The notes under the pieces were generated by a model, which saw only the letters and a program-made list of their open reading frames with translations, had not been told where the DNA came from and searched no databases. A stretch of 60,634 nucleotides of DNA, counting the filler, from Asterionella formosa (lineage: Eukaryota): NCBI GenBank assembly GCA_002256025.1. It is 6 parts of 6 records of this genome, joined end to end, with 100 filler letters (N's around TTAATTAATTAA, not from the genome) between each part and the next. Parts side by side here need not be neighbours in the genome. Positions count along the whole stretch, not along the records: positions 50,629 to 60,634 come from NKIB01009972.1; 5 more parts are not named here. The stretch is one strand, 5' to 3'. Positions 50,629 to 60,634 of the stretch are shown here, in pieces (position 1 is the first letter of the stretch; every line of letters starts with the position of its first letter). Both the position numbers and the translations under genes were made by a program.

Positions 50629-50891
50629 CCGCATGGCTGATTCTTTACAGTCATACATTCGAACGAATCGATATATCCATGCATATCTTCGACTCATACG
50701 CACCGACTTTTGCACCTGCAGGTATTGTACCCCCTGGTACTCCGATGCTTAGCTGGCTGGCTGGCTGGCTGCTCCGCGATGTATCCGCACATGTGTACAC
50801 TATCTTAGGCGCAGACGAAGAAAAATCTTTCATCAACGACTGTACTTATGATACAAATTTGTTGAAAACATAATTTCTGTTGGATCCGACC

Positions 50892-53373
50892 ATGGTGTTT
50901 TCGAATCTCTTTGTTGCATCTGAGGATGACCTCAAAAGGAAGATTGTTGATCTGAAAAAGCAGCTTCGAGAAGCTGAAGTGGCGCTAGAAGGCGTCGAAG
51001 GCGATGGCAAGGTTGAACCAAAGGGTTCTGATAACGGCAGCACTGATGTGGACGAGTCAACTCGTACCTTTGGCAAGAACGGAGTATCTTCCTCCATGTC
51101 TGAACTCATTCGTTCTCCTGTTGGTCACCGAGGCTACTTGTTCAAGTGGCAAGATCGTTCGATTGGCTGGGGAGGTACCAAATGGGCCTTACGATTTGTG
51201 TCCCTTCAACAAGGGAAAATTTCCTATTTTAGGTCGCACAATGATACTGAACCTCGCTATGTTTTGAGCTTGAGAGGGTTTGCTGTACGCGACGAGGGCC
51301 TGAAGCTCAACAGTAAACACTCTTCCAAGGGAGGGAAGCATGTGTCTCCTCCTAAAGATGAAGTTGGAGCGTACTTTCATGTCTTTTCCATATATCAGCG
51401 GCTACCTTCAGAACGAAGACGACGTGACCACGACAGGTCTCGTTTCTATGAAGACTCCACGGATTCGGATGAAACAGTAACTGAGGTAGTTCCCTTGTTA
51501 CGCTTCTCGACTCCTTCCCTTGCGGAAAAGACTCAGTGGATCACAAGAATTTCAGAATCTTGTGCTTACTGCGACACCAATGCCTTCCTTGAAGACGAGA
51601 AAGCAGCCATGGTAGAAGCAGAAAATCGCAAGGAACAGCAGATTTCCATGTACAGGGAAATGCCTCAAGCTGCTCGTGGTACGCTTCCACCTCTTTACTT
51701 TGCCCCTGCACCAGTCCCTAATCCGAGTCTCAAGCGAGTCCCATCTGGCATTACCGTCCCAAAATTAGGCTACCGAACAGCATCTGGCAGCATGGATGCA
51801 GAAAAAGTCGATGCTCGGTCCACAAAAGGCTACCCACCATCAAAGCCAATGCATCGCTCAACTGCTCCCTCTTACCTCAGTTCCGAAGCCCCAATGCAAA
51901 ATTATCGTGGCCTCTTCAATCTGGGAATAATCATATTAATTGTCAGCAATGCTCGACTACTTCTGGATACACTCAAGACTCATGGCTCTGTCTTTGATAA
52001 GTTGCCCGACCTTCCCAAGTTTGCAGTATCACATGATCGATGGGGTGAATTTCCGATTATCTCGGGTTTTGCCGTGATGCAGGTCTTTATCATTCTTTCA
52101 TTCTGTTATGAGAAATTGTTGAGTCTAAATTTGATTTCCAATACTTTAGGGATGTTTCTACACTATCTAAATGCACATGGGTGTCTCCTTGTATCGATTT
52201 ATATGGTTTGGAACCACATTGAAAATCCGTTTATTGGTGCATTAGTGCTTTTTTATGGAGTGATAACATGGATGAAGCTTGTGAGCTACCTCTTGGCAAA
52301 CCAAGACTACAGAACATCACCTGACGACACACACAAAGCAACCCTTGCTCTCGTGCATGATTTAGATGCCGAGGGTATCGAAATGGAGTACCCAAAGTAA
52401 GTTTTGAAGACTTTGGCACCCTATCTCTTGATATCTGACTGACCGTTCAAACTTCCATACATCACTACAGCAACGTTACCATTGGGAATATATACTATTT
52501 TTGGCTCGCTCCTACCCTTACCTATCAAATGGCATTCCCCAGAACTCCGCGCATTCGATTCTGGAGGATCGGTAGTCTCATTTTGCAACTCTTTGTCTCG
52601 CTTTCAATAGGAGCATTTATTGTTGCTCAAGTAACCACCCCAAACCTGATTGCCTTAGTCGATGATTTACAGGCCACTAATGGCGTGTATACATTTGAAA
52701 TTCTTACTGAATACGGCTTGAGACTTTCCATCGCGAATACATATTGCTGGCTGTTGATGTTTTACTCATACTTTCATGCATATCTAAATTTGTGGGCTGA
52801 AATTCTCCGCTTTGGAGACCGTGTTTTCTATAAGGATTGGTGGAACTCATCAGAAGTGGGGGCCTACTGGCGGCTTTGGAATGCTCCTGTGCATTATTGG
52901 GTAAGTTTGGTGGTTGCCAGTCATCTCCATGTGGTGCATGCATGCAATATGAATCATTTTCACTCGTACTCACACTATGTCAGCTTGTCAGGCATGTCTA
53001 TTTTCCCTGCGTTAGGAAAGGTATGAGCCGATCTCAAGCAACGTTCACTGTTTTCTTGATATCTGCAATCATGCATGAAGTACTTGTTAGTGTTCCGTTT
53101 CATTTGCTTCGGCCTTGGTCTTTTTTAGGAATGATGGGACAAGTGCCCTTGGCAATAACTACCAAGTACTTGTCTCGTCGCTTCCCTGGATCTTCCATTG
53201 GTAATGTTATTTTTTGGCTCACATTCTGTATCATCGGACAACCAATGGCTATTCTGATGTATACCGCAGACTTTCAATTTCGCAAAAAAGGCATAATAAC
53301 TATTGGGGAGCTTGTAGCCAACCAATGTGTACGTAAGTGGTGGGGAGGGAAAAATTGCTTTGATGAATTGTAA
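50892..53373 (+). CDS. DGAT1: Diacylglycerol O-acyltransferase 1 (MBOAT) with N-terminal PH domain; exons 50892-52396, 52471-52900, 52984-53373
   Basis: PH domain: HRGYLFKW..WALRFVSL..ISYF..EKTQWI. DGAT1: SYLSS..NYRGLFNL, WMKLVSY, APTLTYQ..FPRT, AEILRFGDRVFYKDWWN, WNAPVHYWLVRHVY, SAIMHE, GNVIFW..GQP. Introns 52397-52470 and 52901-52983 are in frame. Confidence 0.95.
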
Positions 53374-53849
53374 TTATAAGCAATAGAAGCATTGATTGAA
53401 ATCGGCGCAAGATTCCTCGGTCCCATCACTGGCAAAAACCTGAAAATTGTTGCATTAGAGAATTAATTCTTGTATCGCTCCTTGCCTTGCTACAGGAGCC
53501 ATCCAAACGAACTTTTAGGTAGTTTAGCATACAGCAGACGGTTGCATTTATTCAGTTCCATATTTAGCCAAAAATTAGGCATAGAATAAGAGAGTGACAG
53601 CACCAGTTGAAGTTGGGTATAGTTCAAATTAGTATTTTGTAGCCCTTTAACGAGAACAGAAGTATTTACTGAGATTGATTATCAGCTGGCATCATTCAGA
53701 TTGATCATACGTTGACTTTGCACTGGAGAATGGAAGTGATGTTTGTAAATTATTACTGGACGGATTTAACGTTTTCCACTGGAGACTTGTATCGTGACAC
53801 ACACGATAATCAAACCTCACTGAATACCCCTTCCGTATAATTAAGCCTA

Positions 53850-56093
53850 TCATGCTATTCGATCACCCCACGCGTAGATTGCCTTTGGTGAGTACATGAA
53901 AGGGGGAGCAACAAATCTCTTCCTTTCCGTGATACAGTCCAAAGCCTTCATAGACGATGTATTTAACAGCGACGACCCACTTTCCAAAAGAGAAGCGACT
54001 TCATCCAAATGATTCTTTGAAGCACACTTGGGAATGACAGCAACACCATGTAATAAATTCCATTGAAGAATCACCTGAGCGGTTGTTAAGTTATTCGACC
54101 TGGCAACTTCTTTAATAGTTTCATGTTCCAGCAATTGGGAATTGCCCTGTCCTAACGGAGTATGAGCTTGTAGGAGGATATCATGAGTGCAACAAAAATC
54201 AAAAAGATCCCATTGAGGTAGCATTGGATGACGCTCAACCTGATTTATCGATGGCCGAATAGAGCAAATAGATAATAATTGACGCAAGGCGTCAATATTG
54301 AAGTTGCAGACTCCGATAGAACTGACTTGTCCTTCCTTGACAAGATTTTCCATTTCTTGCCAGACTTCCGTTAAAGTGCCTGCAGCCATGACGTCGCTTG
54401 GCCAATGCAAAAGGAGGAGATCAGCTTTGCAACGACAAAGGTTGGACAGACTAGCAGAAAGCTCCTTGCGAACATCTGCTGGTTGTACAGCTCGTTTGGG
54501 CACTTTGATGATGACAAAAGTGTCCTCCTTGAGATATGTGCCAATTTCGGCTTCATTATTGTATGTAGGAGACGTATCGACAGCATTCAAACCACTTCTT
54601 ATCGCCATAGATATTGTATCTTTCGCAATGCGTTTTCCAATTTTCATTGTTCCCAATGTAATTGACGGCATTTCAACATGAGGTGCGAGTAAAAATGATT
54701 TCGGGAGTGATCGAATTGAATTATTATTATCAGACACCATTTGGTACAATGCAGCAAGTCTAGCCACTCCCTCATCTGATCGAGCTACACAAACAAAATC
54801 CAGTCCCTCTTTATACGAAGGAACCACCACTCTTCCAAGTGATATTGCAGCAATTCGAGCACCCTTTTCACCCTCCACACCTGCTGGGTGGTTCGTTCGT
54901 GTTTTGACTCTCTGGAGCACAACTTCCTTTGGAGGCTGCAAGAGGAGCGCATGGACAGGAGTTCCCGCTTGCTTTGCCACGTTGATGAAAAACGACCGTT
55001 GCTCTTCATCCAAGTGCATTCGATCCACAACGACTGATTTGCCTTGCTGTAGGTTCAACATGGCCTGGGTTTCGACTTGTTCTCGCTTGCCTGGTTTTCC
55101 GTTGTTGATTGTGTCCTGGCTCAAATGCAACCATTTCTCAGGAGAGCCGTTCAGCAGCTTGTGACAGAAAGTGGTTTTGCCAGATCCCTGTACACCACAA
55201 AGAATTAAGAGAATGGTCCCACGGAGATACCCTCCACTCAATGCTGCTGTGATTAATAAAGAATTCTTGGGTGGACTCTCAAACTTGGCCATTTCACCAG
55301 AACATTTGCGTCGGCTTGCAGTGGATGGCCCAAAGTACTCGTCTGGCGTATAAAAGCTCAAGGTTGTCCCCTTCATTTGTCCGACATTTTTGGCAAACTT
55401 ACTATCAACTCCACCTTGAGGATCCTCTGGGTTGTCTTCAATGGAGTCTCCAACATAGAATGAATCTTTAATGTTAAACTGGACTCCTCCATTTAATTGT
55501 TGTTCTATAACAGTCCACAAGTCTTTGCTCGGCTTGTGAAAGCCTGCTTTGCTATTGGTGCTTATAATGGCATGGAGTGGTCTATGGAGCTGACTCTCAA
55601 TCCATTCAATGATTGTCTTGACTCGTGTTGCATTCTTGCCAGTGAATGCCTTTCGAATGGCACCTTGGTTGGTGATGAGTACTAATTTGTATCCCTCCTC
55701 GTACCGCTGCTGGAGCGTGGCAAAGACAGACGCATTCCATAGTTCGTAATGTTCCAGTTGGCTAGGCCACAATGACGATGACCTCCATACCAAAAGCGTC
55801 CCATCGAGATCGAATGCAGCCACTTTGTCGCGAGGTCTGTCCTTTTGTGCGTGACGAAGAAGCAGGCAATCTAAATGAGTTCTCCAAGAAGTGGTAATAG
55901 GAGTCGGAGCTGGAATGATTGGATCCAGCAAATTTGGATGGATTGGGGGAGTTTGGCTGGTCTCGTTCCCTTCATTCGTTGCGCCCACCGGTACTACTTT
56001 TGGCTTGTTACTTCCAAAGAAAGAAGTAAGGGAGCTCTGTTTCTGTTGCTGTGTGCTGGATGCTTCTAGCTTTGGTCGTTTGGCCGCTGACAT
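53850..56093 (-). CDS. Polynucleotide kinase/3'-phosphatase (PNKP-like) fused to a C-terminal aldo-keto reductase; N-terminal NLS and PIP box
   Basis: 747-aa intronless ORF. KRPK; QSSLTSFF; AAFDLDGTL, ITNQGAI, KP and FYVGD..D.KFAKNVG..FYTPDEYF; CGVQGSGKTT, SQD and VVVDR; LGT, VDTSPTYNNE, K, LLLHWP, IGVCNF, NQVERHP, AHTPLG, AQVILQW and VIPK. Confidence 0.9.
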   Translation of the reverse strand: MSAAKRPKLEASSTQQQKQSSLTSFFGSNKPKVVPVGATNEGNETSQTPPIHPNLLDPIIPAPTPITTSWRTHLDCLLLRHAQKDRPRDKVAAFDLDGTLLVWRSSSLWPSQLEHYELWNASVFATLQQRYEEGYKLVLITNQGAIRKAFTGKNATRVKTIIEWIESQLHRPLHAIISTNSKAGFHKPSKDLWTVIEQQLNGGVQFNIKDSFYVGDSIEDNPEDPQGGVDSKFAKNVGQMKGTTLSFYTPDEYFGPSTASRRKCSGEMAKFESPPKNSLLITAALSGGYLRGTILLILCGVQGSGKTTFCHKLLNGSPEKWLHLSQDTINNGKPGKREQVETQAMLNLQQGKSVVVDRMHLDEEQRSFFINVAKQAGTPVHALLLQPPKEVVLQRVKTRTNHPAGVEGEKGARIAAISLGRVVVPSYKEGLDFVCVARSDEGVARLAALYQMVSDNNNSIRSLPKSFLLAPHVEMPSITLGTMKIGKRIAKDTISMAIRSGLNAVDTSPTYNNEAEIGTYLKEDTFVIIKVPKRAVQPADVRKELSASLSNLCRCKADLLLLHWPSDVMAAGTLTEVWQEMENLVKEGQVSSIGVCNFNIDALRQLLSICSIRPSINQVERHPMLPQWDLFDFCCTHDILLQAHTPLGQGNSQLLEHETIKEVARSNNLTTAQVILQWNLLHGVAVIPKCASKNHLDEVASLLESGSSLLNTSSMKALDCITERKRFVAPPFMYSPKAIYAWGDRIA

Positions 56094-56935
56094 GCTGTTG
56101 ATGTTTGTTGCAGTGCTTTATACCAGGGCTGCTGATATCGACATGTTGTGATGGTCCCCCAAATATTGTATTATGATAACCGTCATACAGTCATGTTTAT
56201 TAATATTATTATTATCGACAGAGAGCGATCTACCGTACGCACCGCGGTAAATCATTGATGGAATGATTTTGATGAAGAATTTTATGTACGGTTGATTCTT
56301 ATAGAAATATACTGGTATGATTGATACCCGGTCGTAAGTACCGGTATGTTTAATCGCTACCATCAGGTTCCTGCTATGCAAGCTGCGGTGATTGTGTTGA
56401 AACAAAAGGTTTAGCTACCGGTATCTTTGTCCCATATTAATTGCTTTTTTAAGCTACCGGTAAAGGACTGCAACTTGCTGCCAACAGGATCTCAATGGGT
56501 CATGGCAGTTTTTTACTGGTACCTGTATATACCCTGTATTGCTCATACAGTAGTAGGTCATGGCTAGTCCAAGAATTTATCAACACTAAAATACCTTATC
56601 TGAATCATATATACTATTTTGCTATGGAGCATTCATAATAATTATTCTGAGTATCTTTTGTCTGCATGGTTCTATTGTGATATCGTCCAATTCTAAATAT
56701 TAAAATTACTGTGCCTACCGGTATATATTATCATACCAGTAGAGAAATAAAATTCACAAAATAAAATCCAAGCCGTGTCGGAAGTTTTTCGTCGCTCACT
56801 TTCTCCTTTGTGAATACGAACAACAACTCACGCCACGACCTAATCGACAATCACTTTACAGGATACATTAGTCTGAAACGAGTAGCTCGTGCTGCCTCTA
56901 ATTACTGCACTACACCATTCTAACACTACCGAACG

Positions 56936-59229
56936 ATGCTCACTGCCTCTTGCGAAAACATGATTGACGACCACGACGAAGAAAACCACCACGGAGAAAC
57001 GTCCGCCTACTTCCGTTCCATGTCAACTGGTCATGATCTCAACAAGCCAATCAAGCCTAACTTGAGACGTGCTGGAACACGACGATTCTCGATCCTCATG
57101 TCAACTGCAGATCACTTTCAAGACAAGGCAGACGGGAAGTTCTACGGACCCTACGCTCACATTCGCAAGCAATTGGACTACACGTACCACAGTCACTACC
57201 AAAAGGAACGACAATGGATGCAAGACAGTATCATTGAAGAGTTCCTGGAAAACGTACAAAGCACCGACGTGTGCACCACTCCTACCGAGCCTTGGCTCAT
57301 TTACACTGTCGGAGCGCCGGGGGCTGGCAAGATACACACACTCATGACGTTGGTCAGGGACAGGAAACTTCCACTTTTGAGCTTTGTGTTGATTGATCCG
57401 GACGCGATTCGTCGACGTCTTCCGGAGTTTCAGTCTTTTGTTCAAAAGTGCCCAGACAAGGTGGATGCTTTGACCAGTAGAGAAGCAGGATACATTGTGG
57501 AAATTCTCACGTTGGCCGCCGTGCAGAGTGGTAAGAATGTCGTGTTGGATGGATGTTTGCAGTCCACCGAGTGGCATGGAGAATTTTTCGATTCGTTGAA
57601 GATTGACAACAATAAATTGAAAATTGGGATGCTTCACATTACGGCTCCACGAGACACAATCTTGCAACGTGCACTGGTAAGCTATTATTACAAGGGCTAC
57701 ACACAAAACGTGTGCTCATCTTGGGAATTGTTGGGCTTTCTCGTTTTCGATTGATTTATTTGTTCAATGCTCACCAATTCAAATCTACGAATAGGAGGTT
57801 GCCATTTACACCGGTCGTATCATTCCCGTCAATGTCATTGACCAGATTTTGGAGCAAATCCCCAAGTCGATTGTCGACATTGAGGATACCATTGATTACT
57901 TTTGCGACTTTTCCAATAATGGAGATGAGATCAAAATAACAACCAAAGGCCAATCATGGGAATCGCTATATCAAACATTTTTACAAACATGCGCATGGTT
58001 CCCTGGACAGAAAAAGGGTCAGCTTGGACAGTTGGCTACAGAAGCTGGAAGGAAGGAAGCCCTTGATGCTGCGTTGAAGGCGGCTCCATCCATCATAGAC
58101 AAGGGACTACAAAACAACAAACAGAAGCGATTTTCCGTTCTCATCAGTTCCGAAGAAAATCATAAAACGAACAACACTGAATTTTATGGTGCTTTCTCAC
58201 ACATTCGTTCAACACTGGACTACACTTATCATGCGCATTACACACGTGAGCGTCAATCTCTTCAAGATGCCATTATTAAGGACATGCTGAACTCGGCTGT
58301 TATCAAAGATGTAAATGGTGATGTATGCACTACTCCAACCGAACCTTGGATTGTCTTTACAGCGGGAGCCATGGGCGCTGGAAAGTCGTACACCATGAAC
58401 AAACTGGTCGAAGAAGGACGATTTCCATTACTAGCATTTGTCTTGGTTGACCCAGACGAGATCCGTCGTCATCTTCCGGAGTTTCATTTATATGTTGACC
58501 AATCTCCTGAATTGGCAGGGGAGTTAACGAGAAAGGAGGCCGGTTTCATTTCTGAAATATTAACACTAGCTGGTCTNNNNNNNNNNNNNNNNNNNNNNNN
58601 NNNNNNNNNNNNNNNNNNNNNNNNNNNNNNNNNNNNNNNNNNNNNNNNNNNNNNNNNNNNNNNNNNNNNNNNNNNNNNNNNNNNNNNNNNNNNNNNNNNN
58701 NNNNNNNNNNNNNNNNNNNNNNNNNNNNNNNNNNNNNNNNNNNNNNNNNNNNNNNNNNNNNNNNNNNNNNNNNNNNNNNNNNNNNNNNNNNNNNNNNNNN
58801 NNNNNNNNNNNNNNNNNNNNNNNNNNNNNNNNNNNNNNNNNNNNNNNNNNNNNNNNNNNNNNNNNNNNNNNNNNNNNNNNNNNNNNNNNNNNNNNNNNNN
58901 NNNNNNNNNNNNNNNNNNNNNNNNNNNNNNNNNNNNNNNNNNNNNNNNNNNNNNNNNNNNNNNNNNNNNNNNNNNNNNNNNNNNNATTGGCATTGGATCA
59001 AGTGCCACGATCTGTAAAAATCCTGGGACCTCTTGTCACCTACTTTTGCGAACTAAACAATGCTCCAGGTGCACCAGATATTGAATTGATGACGGATACT
59101 GAAACCTGGGAATCATTTGAGAGGAATTGGCATCAAACCTGTGCTTGGGTGCCATCGCGACGTAAATTCCTCAGGCCATCCAAGGGAAATGACCCAAAAC
59201 TAGCGCTGGGAGGAAAAAAGGTGTATTAA
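56936..59229 (+). CDS. Protein with two tandem zeta-toxin-like P-loop kinase domains; intron 57677-57794; N-gap 58577-58985
   Basis: Internal duplication: RRFSIL..FYG..HIR..LDYTYH.HY..ERQ..QD.II..DVCTTPTEPW..GAPGAGK / GAMGAGKS..FVL.DPD.IRR.LPEF..LT..EAG.I.EILTLA..QTCAW.P occurs twice. The intron joins QRAL|EVAIYTGR in frame. Confidence 0.82.
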
Positions 59230-60634
59230 TTAAGTAGGTTGTGGAGTAGTTGTTAAGATGTTGATCAAGTCAAGTTGTGTATCACACAAGGAAAACTATG
59301 CCATACATGTTTTCCTTTACCTAAATGGATATTGACATGGACAAGTGAATAGAGTGAATCGTGCTACATGTAGGAAGTATTCACATGTGTTAGTTGTAAT
59401 GTTGTAAACAGTGGATTTAGTACTATTTGTCATGGACCAAGTCTTGTGGCTGATAGAGCTGGAGAGAAACAACTCAAACAGTCTTAAACATGTACACCTG
59501 TTTAGATAAACTCATTGAAGAATATTAAAATGAATCACCTTGTCACTATACTGTATTGCTCAAGTGTCGGTAGGATAGCCAAGACTAGTAGCTCCTCCTG
59601 GCAGCAGTATAGCAGTGTAAATGGAACAGCAATAATTCATTTGGACATTGTAACTGCATAAAATCATACACTATTCCTCTTAACTATTACCAGTGCTCTA
59701 GAATCCCATGGATAAATGCTTTTCCTCCTTGCAAAGGAGTAACACCAGCAATGTCTACAGTCTCCACTGAAGGATGGCGGCATGTATAATGCTGATTGTT
59801 ACCATAATTTACAACCATTTTGTCTACTACTGCAGAGTACACTTTTGCCATCCAAGGATCGAAAAGCTCATCATCACTGCTCATCCTCAAAACCTGTTAA
59901 AAAAGGGACAAAATCTCTTGTCTTGGTGATGGCCTTTAAACAACTTATATCTTCAACAGCTGCATTGAATTGACATAAATACATTCCAAGTGCAAAGATT
60001 AGACAATTAAACATTGGATTGGGATAAGCAGGCCTTGAGAATCTTGAATGGTCACCTTTTAAATATTTATCCCTCAAAAGTGCTTGTTTTTGGTCATCAC
60101 AACGGCCATTGCAATGGCCATCACTTACCTTCTCTTATCTTATCTTTGTTCCTTACTAATGTGATCTTGTGGATTGCTTGTTCACTGCTGCTTCAAGAAT
60201 TGTAATTATGAGATGATGGTTCCTCGAGGGCACTCATTCCAATTTAGTTTTGAGCGATTTTAACATTGGTTGTCAAGGCAAGGCAAAGCAAAGATTTTGA
60301 AATTACAAAGCAAAATGCACAGGACATTTGGTCTGAGAAGGAGGAATGAGCCATGACAAGTTTGATGAACCTCAAAACTGCCAAGGAAGATAGTTAATGC
60401 TAGAATATAATTAATAACATACATTAGTAAGTGGAAAGGATTAGTAAGTTCAATTATATAGCACCATTATGAATCATATGTGGTTGAGAACAAGTATTTT
60501 CATTGCTTTGGTCCACCTTGCTTGCTTTGTGTACTTCACAACAATTATTTCAAAGTATGTATGGCCATTAGTTGAGAACAAAATGCAATGCATTCAAGAT
60601 TTAATTGCCTTTCTGTTTTCCTTCCTCCAAAGAT

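Follow-up and report, generated by a model that had tools for sequence, protein, structure and literature searches.

The window analyzed here, a 60,634-nucleotide stretch made of six joined parts from the genome of the diatom Asterionella formosa (GCA_002256025.1), contains in its NKIB01009972.1 part (positions 50,629 to 60,634) a gene that joins the DNA-end-healing enzyme PNKP to an aldo-keto reductase (AKR) in a single chain. The open reading frame (ORF) occupies 53850..56093 on the minus strand, as do all of the features described within it, and both the ORF listing and the translation give one uninterrupted, intronless frame of 747 codons and a stop. The encoded protein reads from N to C terminus as a tail with a PCNA-interacting protein (PIP) box, a 3′-phosphatase, a 5′-kinase, and the AKR, and Pfam places PNK3P, AAA_33, and Aldo_ket_red in that order. 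The initial annotation of this stretch had described the same frame and had placed in it a basic KRPK, a PIP box, a DxDGT phosphatase motif, and a GVQGSGKTT P-loop, all of which the translation returns at their positions. Its interpretation, that the AKR may reduce aldehydic DNA ends or genotoxic aldehydes at PCNA-marked repair sites, is partly supported. Judged from alignments of homologues, the catalytic residues of all three domains are under purifying selection, and the three sites are apparently active, with activities that look maintained. Our tentative proposal, to which we give clearly less than an even chance, is that the protein heals DNA ends in the nucleus as a trifunctional enzyme, probably tethered to PCNA, whose AKR would reduce 5′-aldehyde ends to 5′-OH. 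Slightly more doubtful is the stronger form of this proposal, in which the AKR would be a DNA 5′-aldehyde reductase acting in line with the kinase and the phosphatase, the first dedicated direct reversal of a C5′-oxidation end, and in which the same pairing of a reductase with a PNK would have arisen independently in Myxococcota.

The N-terminal part is a PNKP, on the evidence of its diagnostic residues and of the order of its domains. The HAD-type DNA 3′-phosphatase (residues 90–254, 55332..55826), with DLDGT at residues 95–99, matches PF08645 (PNK3P) over the full profile (1–161/161; E 2.7e-28; 99.2 bits, cut-off 22) and the DNA 3′-phosphatase model TIGR01664 with E 1.2e-23. The P-loop 5′-kinase that follows (residues 295–455, 54729..55211) carries the Walker A sequence GVQGSGKTT at residues 300–308, Asp327 in SQDT, and Asp357 in DRMH, and AAA_33 covers its residues 295–402 (E 3.6e-17). 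Residue conservation was counted in an alignment of the query with 120 homologues (121 sequences), in which the phosphatase residues D95 (115/117) and T99 (116/116) are kept, the motif III residue K187 and the motif IV residue D216 are present in 121/121, and K306, D327, D357, and R358 of the kinase are likewise invariant (121/121). The eukaryotic PNK-3′Pase model TIGR01663, which takes in the metazoan FHA domain, covers residues 73–392 over profile positions 148–456 with 118.7 bits against an equivalog cut-off of 502.8, and the bacterial Pnkp model TIGR04075 is not reached (30.2 bits against 750, the kinase region alone being matched). Mouse PNKP (PDB 3zvl, 1yj5, and 3u7e) is the best Foldseek match to the diatom model (E 4e-23) and shares with it a HAD 3′-phosphatase followed by a P-loop 5′-kinase, the DxDxT motif, the motif III Lys, the motif IV Asp, Walker A, and the kinase Asp; 3zvl aligns to diatom residues 70–381 (E 3.2e-28), which puts SQD327T on mouse NRDT and VVVD357R on VVIDN. 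The diatom protein differs from mouse PNKP in its N-terminal PIP-type box, in its additional C-terminal AKR, and in having no FHA domain; Pfam finds no FHA family in it at E ≤ 0.1, in agreement with the initial annotation.

The C-terminal third is, by profile and by predicted fold, a member of the AKR superfamily, an (alpha/beta)8 barrel at residues 473–747 (53853..54677). PF00248 matches residues 478–719 (E 4.9e-34; profile 2–287/291; 118.2 bits, cut-off 24), which puts the start of the domain at about 54662–54677, close to the ~54680 first proposed. AlphaFold2 (AF2) models eight strands between residues 473 and 689, and Foldseek superposes the AKR part on solved AKRs with TMt 0.74–0.87, the best being Escherichia coli DkgA (1mzr; TMt 0.87, root-mean-square deviation (rmsd) 2.2 Å). 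The last 283 residues align to 3b3d and to YvgN (3d3f) with E about 2e-39 and with the catalytic tetrad in register, so that the four residues already assigned to catalysis, D506 (VDTS), Y511 (PTYNNE), K530 (IIKVP), and H563 (LHWP), fall on the tetrad of these enzymes; all four are invariant in the 121/121 fused sequences, and the cofactor contacts N597 and Q618 are also kept in 121/121. The description of this AKR as intact thus holds for the tetrad and the barrel, both of which are complete, and does not extend to the cofactor site. The canonical NADPH 2′-phosphate motif IPKSxxxxRxxxN is absent, and in the alignment to YvgN- and YtbE-type AKRs the corresponding residues 687–699 (53997..54035) read IPKCASKNHLDEV, in which His695 takes the place of the Arg and an aliphatic residue, Val699, that of the Asn. 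Among the homologues, K689 is kept in 113/117, residue 699 is always aliphatic (I, L, V, or A), and His695 is found in 112/113, so that the altered cofactor site is a trait of the family rather than decay. A family-specific C-terminal tail, RFVAPPFMY..AIYAW (residues 726–742, 53868..53918), has no counterpart in YvgN in the alignment; its R726, P730, F732, M733, and W742 are each at least 90% conserved, the aromatic tail of the family reads RFVAPPFMYG..A.YCWG, and it may serve as substrate loop C. Equally family specific is the KVPKRA that follows the catalytic Lys, where usual AKRs have K-[LV]-W and those of the YvgN type K-V-W. The best NCBIfam AKR models are DkgA (NF008598; 149.8 bits against a cut-off of 425) and DkgB (NF008377; 121.8 against 327), and the domain does not reach the equivalog cut-offs of the DkgA/YvgN-type models. 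YvgN, 3b3d, and DkgA have in common with it a barrel of ~275 residues with short loops and the D-Y-K-H tetrad, but they are free enzymes, whereas the diatom domain is fused and carries His695, the aliphatic residue 699, KVPKRA, and the conserved aromatic C-tail.

The kinase and the AKR are joined by a short linker (residues 456–472, 54678..54728). The AF2 model of the whole protein, built from a 94-sequence alignment, has a mean predicted local distance difference test score (pLDDT) of 90.5 and a predicted template modeling score (pTM) of 0.85; the pLDDT dips to 76 at residues 451–460 between flanking blocks above 90, and a linker this short and fairly confident in the model fits a fixed arrangement of the domains. 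A complex prediction of the PNKP core (residues 60–456) with the AKR (residues 463–747), run without alignments and without controls, returned a score of 0.00 and a mark of 0.34 and weighs neither for nor against such an arrangement.

The N-terminal tail (residues 1–50, 55944..56093) is predicted to be disordered, with pLDDT below 50 at residues 1–3, 5–20, 22–24, and 26–44 and ten-residue block means of 40–50 across residues 1–50, and it shows low conservation outside two motifs. One is the KRPK at residues 5–8 (56070..56081), read from the sequence, which resembles a nuclear localization signal; in the alignment of diatom homologues, a K/R-rich patch with the consensus PAxKxxK precedes the PIP box. 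The other is the PIP-type box itself, QSSLTSFF at residues 19–26 (56016..56039), a match to the strict motif Q..[LIMV]..[FY][FY] that sits within the disordered tail with a short helix predicted by AF2 at residues 24–26. When the region upstream of the phosphatase was scored in homologues with at least 60 residues there, the strict motif occurred in 85 of 108, compared with 24 of 21600 shuffled versions of these regions, and Q19, F25, and F26 are each at least 90% conserved; by these counts, the box is conserved beyond chance. It thereby has the sequence marks of a PIP client, namely Qxx[LIMV]xx[FY][FY] in a disordered region and conservation among orthologues. N-terminal PIP boxes are known in DNA ligase I, UNG2, and MSH6, which resemble the diatom protein in having Qxx[LIM]xxFF near the N-terminus, a disordered tail, and an adjoining basic patch. 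The PIP-type box probably targets the protein to sites of DNA synthesis or repair. By title and abstract, no paper centered on a PIP box in a PNKP turned up among those listed from the open-access literature searched.

The fusion is a transcribed gene conserved across pennate and centric diatoms. Part of the stretch is contained in 17 public RNA runs, six of which contain half or more of the words sampled, and most of these runs are freshwater or lake metatranscriptomes; the host diatom is probably a freshwater species. Contigs of four RNA runs from four studies were placed on 53500–56500, and the junction near 54700 is crossed colinearly in all four: by X5 record 8 (54157–56070), X3 record 6 (53959–56195), X1 record 1 (53500–54835), and X7 record 9 (53500–56373, 95–99% likeness). 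The contigs show no joints, and so no intron, over 53500–56500; contigs from RNA libraries may contain DNA and do not by themselves prove a single transcript. A word-indexed protein search gave 148 matches at E ≤ 0.001 among 8000 scored candidates, and PF08645, PF13671, and PF00248 are all present in each of the 120 best matches listed. The named sources of these homologues include Cylindrotheca closterium, Nitzschia inconspicua, Pseudo-nitzschia multistriata, Epithemia clementina, Amphora coffeaeformis, Mayamaea pseudoterrestris, Cyclotella cryptica, Cyclotella cf. meneghiniana, and Stephanocyclus meneghinianus, with both pennate and centric diatoms represented, and two homologues are MMETSP transcripts marked ‘type:complete’. 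In the ESM Atlas, the query falls in a 98-member cluster that has all three Pfam families and Bacillariophyta as its commonest phylum. An exhaustive HMMER search of 1.84 billion representatives gave 175 matches at E ≤ 1e-30; about the first 60 rows consist of fused forms and fragments of these, with stand-alone AKRs and PNKPs below them, and a Pfam scan of 25 chosen rows brought out the TDP1 fusions and the divergent three-domain proteins described below.

The initial annotation had named misassembly or separate genes as the danger to this fusion and had pointed to relatives, transcripts, and reads spanning ~54700 as the places to look. Misassembly, or readthrough of two adjacent genes, now has a practically negligible probability: the frame has neither a stop nor a frame change, the contigs that cross the junction are colinear and come from four studies, and the three-domain architecture recurs in all 120 listed homologues, transcripts included. 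The further claim that no PNKP-AKR architecture had been described stands for the literature, insofar as no paper on it turned up, by title and abstract, among those listed from the open-access literature searched. It does not stand for the databases, which already hold the architecture in more than 100 diatom proteins under automatic names (‘DNA 3′-phosphatase’, ‘NADP-dependent oxidoreductase domain-containing protein’), and a permuted analogue exists in Myxococcota.

Two groups of proteins outside the diatoms bear on what the AKR may do. The nearest AKR-less PNKPs in the exhaustive HMMER search are chlorarachniophyte proteins, P0189 (37% identity), a complete MMETSP transcript, and P0196 (31% identity), a UniRef entry from Amorphochlora amoebiformis whose name says ‘PNK FHA’. 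These chains of ~1120–1160 residues end in a tyrosyl-DNA phosphodiesterase (TDP1; PF06087, E about 1e-85), and among the 120 matches listed PNK3P and TDP1 are combined in these two only. They resemble the diatom protein in the kinase motifs DRMHL, NH..G.KG, and P.Y.EGF.LIS and in carrying a second enzyme at the same C-terminal position, but they differ in having TDP1 in place of the AKR, an N-terminus that looks FHA-like by eye, and no PIP box. In another lineage of this PNKP subfamily, the position that is taken by the AKR in diatoms is thus occupied by a bona fide enzyme of DNA-end cleaning. TDP1 generates a PNKP substrate.

The second group comes from Myxococcota. Bacterial clusters with AAA_33 and an AKR were indicated by the ESM Atlas and then checked on sequences; PF08645 has matches in 79 of 401 sampled Myxococcota genomes, and 12 of these matches, picked for long open frames, were fetched. 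Ten of the 12 loci read as an N-terminal region of ~170 residues followed by an AKR, a P-loop kinase, and a HAD phosphatase, an order that Pfam confirmed in all five such proteins submitted. In these fusions of ~730–830 residues (L037:1188–3398, L039:3055–5358, L045:969–3428, L046:1197–3488, L041:706–3366, and five more loci), the catalytic tetrad of the AKR is present, as are Walker A and the NRD/DNT motifs of the kinase and the DxDGT of the phosphatase. Their kinase matches positions 362–504 of the NCBIfam PNK-3′Pase model, and their HAD domain carries a CxH...CxCRKP motif and is GmhB- or HisB-like; the N-terminal ~170 residues of three of the proteins have no Pfam match up to E = 5. The likeness to the diatom protein lies in the same three enzyme classes within one polypeptide and in an AKR adjoining the kinase, and the differences lie in the permuted order, the AKR subfamily (best model PRK10376, versus DkgA in the diatom), the HAD type, and the extra N-terminal region. 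In BLASTP, the Myxococcota and diatom proteins share only 24% identity over the AKR, 23% over the phosphatase, and 19% over the kinase. The diatom PNKP part has no match at E ≤ 1e-5 in the same 401 genomes, so that the Myxococcota analogue is no close relative. A scan of prokaryotes with the diatom alignment took 579 pattern matches to 21 confirmed loci, 20 with the AKR part only (one of them, L003, is a plain AKR of 345 residues) and one with the HAD part only, and with the patterns of that scan no diatom-type fusion was found in prokaryotes. We read the Myxococcota AKR-kinase-phosphatase as an independent fusion, judged by domain order and sequence. By analogy, this fusion and the presence of TDP1 at the same position in chlorarachniophytes suggest a functional coupling between the AKR and the PNK activities.

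AKRs convert aldehydes to primary alcohols, and this chemistry would fit a particular DNA lesion. Attack at deoxyribose C5′ by a hydroxyl radical or an enediyne would leave a break with a 3′-phosphate and a nucleoside 5′-aldehyde. The AKR, with NAD(P)H, would turn the 5′-aldehyde into a 5′-hydroxyl, the adjoining kinase would phosphorylate the resulting 5′-OH, and the phosphatase would take off the 3′-phosphate, giving a nick that could be ligated or extended. We favor a 5′-aldehyde because it is the only DNA-borne aldehyde whose reduction product is exactly the substrate of the fused kinase, because the lesion arises together with a 3′-phosphate, the substrate of the fused phosphatase, and because it would account for an AKR that adjoins the kinase in two independent fusions: the AKR may stand next to the kinase because its product, a 5′-OH, is what the kinase acts on. 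The arrangement would also parallel PNKP-TDP1, in which the added enzyme makes a PNKP substrate, and the lesion is one without an assigned enzyme. According to the parts of the literature consulted, 5′-aldehyde termini are abundant hydroxyl-radical lesions for which no specific end-processing enzyme is known, and the 5′-aldehydes of enediyne breaks, which are accompanied by a 3′-phosphate or a 3′-phosphoglycolate, are described as lesions whose resolution ‘is essentially unknown’ (PMC3825254).

Several observations weigh against a PCNA-tethered 5′-aldehyde reductase. The contact of the AKR with DNA is something that we purely infer, and the domain is not basic: its median pI is 6.97, compared with 6.40 for 28 stand-alone AKR-sized representatives, and the kinase domain alone is basic, with a median pI of 9.08, which argues weakly against DNA binding by the AKR. 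The AKRs nearest to it reduce small carbonyl compounds (YvgN, the ‘putative morphine dehydrogenase’ 3b3d, DkgA, and a trypanosomatid prostaglandin F synthase), and the altered motif, with His695 for Arg and an aliphatic residue for Asn, leaves its cofactor use uncertain. The strict PIP box is missing from 23 of the 108 homologues, mostly forms with N-termini of 250–520 residues and a DLDQT phosphatase motif, Cyclotella and Stephanocyclus among them. The two-domain superposition on mouse PNKP is loose (TMt 0.42, rmsd about 14 Å in Foldseek). The Myxococcota HAD domain fits the histidinol-phosphatase/GmhB models better (TIGR01656, E 2.3e-23) than the DNA 3′-phosphatase model (TIGR01664, E 2e-13) so that the Myxococcota analogue may have small molecules as its substrates; the argument from convergence is weaker for it. 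The flanks of nine Myxococcota loci (101 ORFs) show no repair genes and no conserved neighborhood; the families found there are scattered and include a methyltransferase, a CN hydrolase, an acetyl-CoA synthetase, a DegT aminotransferase, and a PHB regulator.

In every reading, the substrate of the AKR is what we infer, and several substrates other than a 5′-aldehyde end have to be weighed. The AKR may reduce free reactive carbonyls at break sites, with PNKP and PCNA merely delivering it; sugar fragments from beta,delta-elimination or deoxyribose oxidation, base propenals, glyoxal or methylglyoxal, and lipid or diatom polyunsaturated aldehydes would all be candidates. We regard such local detoxification as unlikely, while granting it real weight: in both sequence and fold, the AKR comes closest to carbonyl reductases that act on small molecules, the domain is not basic, and the tetrad is invariant. 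A diffusible substrate gives little reason, however, for a short linker and a confident single-chain model, leaves unexplained why the AKR adjoins the kinase in two independent fusions, and sits poorly with the changes at the rim of the active site (KVPKRA and the conserved aromatic C-tail), which argue for a special substrate. The polyunsaturated aldehydes of diatoms, which the initial annotation had brought in, leave the Myxococcota analogue unexplained. Its other suggestion was that the AKR may act on apurinic/apyrimidinic (AP) sites and the products of AP lyases. AP sites, 3′-unsaturated aldehydes, and 5′-deoxyribose phosphate (5′-dRP) are the most abundant DNA aldehydes, and their reduction within DNA would lower their reactivity, for example so as to prevent cross-links; the architecture speaks for this as much as for a 5′-aldehyde. 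The end stays blocked when an AP or dRP residue is reduced, since the residue can then no longer leave by beta-elimination and resists removal by a lyase, so that the ends would not be unblocked and neither PNKP activity would work on the products. The idea is chemically unattractive on these grounds, and we give it a low probability; no paper on reduction of abasic sites by an AKR in DNA repair turned up, by title and abstract, among the results of a full-text search.

The AKR might instead bind NAD(P)(H) and modulate PNKP, whether by sensing redox state or cofactor or by serving as a scaffold, in the manner of the Kv-beta (AKR6) subunits of potassium channels. The replacement of the 2′-phosphate-binding Arg by a near-invariant His, the rigid single-chain model, and weak matches of Kv_beta models to the Myxococcota analogues would suit a regulatory barrel, but the invariance of the tetrad, N597, and Q618 in 121/121 sequences goes beyond the needs of cofactor binding, and we think such a role improbable. 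More improbable still is a pathway outside nucleic acids, in which kinase, phosphatase, and reductase would act serially on a sugar or sugar phosphate in diatoms and Myxococcota alike. The resemblance of the Myxococcota HAD domain to GmhB and histidinol phosphatases, the metabolic or unrelated neighbors of those genes, and the diketogluconate reductases among the best matches of the AKR would all be expected of such a pathway. It does not accommodate N-terminal two thirds that align to mouse PNKP (E 3e-28) and to TIGR01663, including the Asp of the kinase NRDT, nor the conserved PIP-type box and basic patch, nor the fact that the nearest AKR-less relatives are FHA-PNKP-TDP1 proteins.

PNKP is a core enzyme of single-strand and double-strand break repair, and its known partners are, to our knowledge, other end processors and scaffolds, with no oxidoreductase among them. 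A redox enzyme welded to PNKP and conserved across diatoms with an intact active site, together with an independent bacterial counterpart, implies that current repair schemes are missing a step, either in DNA-end chemistry or in detoxification at damage sites, and the fusion makes the question of the 5′-aldehyde end directly testable. Even if the substrate proves to be a free aldehyde, the protein would represent a diatom-wide repair adaptation and a PCNA-directed mode of PNKP recruitment. We regard the gene as a sound and specific lead on strand-break repair.

Some relatives depart from the common architecture. Proteins of the Cyclotella/Stephanocyclus type (P0055, P0060, P0063, and similar) have N-terminal extensions of 300–500 residues without a strict PIP box, and they carry serine- and acid-rich stretches such as SSSSSEEDDEE as well as DLDQT for DLDGT. 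P0143 and P0151 (34–37% identity) form with P0251 a small, alanine-rich group of divergent three-domain proteins without a PIP box. The N-terminus of this group is FHA-like in appearance, and that of P0151 has an FHA_2 match below threshold (E 0.097); an ‘FHA-PNKP-AKR’ architecture for the three is only a lead. Rows of the ESM Atlas also list candidate clusters in Haptophyta and Acidobacteriota. P0151 has a degenerate phosphatase motif, DLEHT, in which the second Asp of DxDxT is lost, and it has also lost the GDS motif. Candidate AKR-less diatom forms are P0144, which stops at the linker, and P0147, which diverges just past the start of the AKR; truncation or an error in the gene model is possible for both. 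The best bacterial PNK3P match is in Myxococcota, L044:2875–4512 on the minus strand (E 2.4e-24 over the whole profile), where Pfam finds PNK3P only, without a kinase or an AKR, and a hydrophobic, signal-like stretch lies before it.

Within the window, the opposite strand carries, immediately upstream of the PNKP-AKR gene, two neighboring stretches with the look of paralogous P-loop kinase genes. The first, at 56936–57754 (plus strand), is a P-loop kinase-like gene that matches Zeta_toxin (E 2.9e-16) and AAA_33 in Pfam; the second, at ~58350–58577 (plus strand), resembles it and shares by eye the pattern ...GAGK...LPLL.FVL.DPD.IRR.LPEF..., and it is followed at 58578–58985 by a run of N, an assembly gap within the apparent coding region. 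On the other side of the gene, at 52529–53373 (plus strand), lies an MBOAT-family acyltransferase (PF03062) that contains FYKDWWN and is spread over two overlapping frames. Its pieces, at 52529–53026 and 52837–53373, match profile positions 144–241 and 241–334, and the split suggests a short intron or a frameshift.

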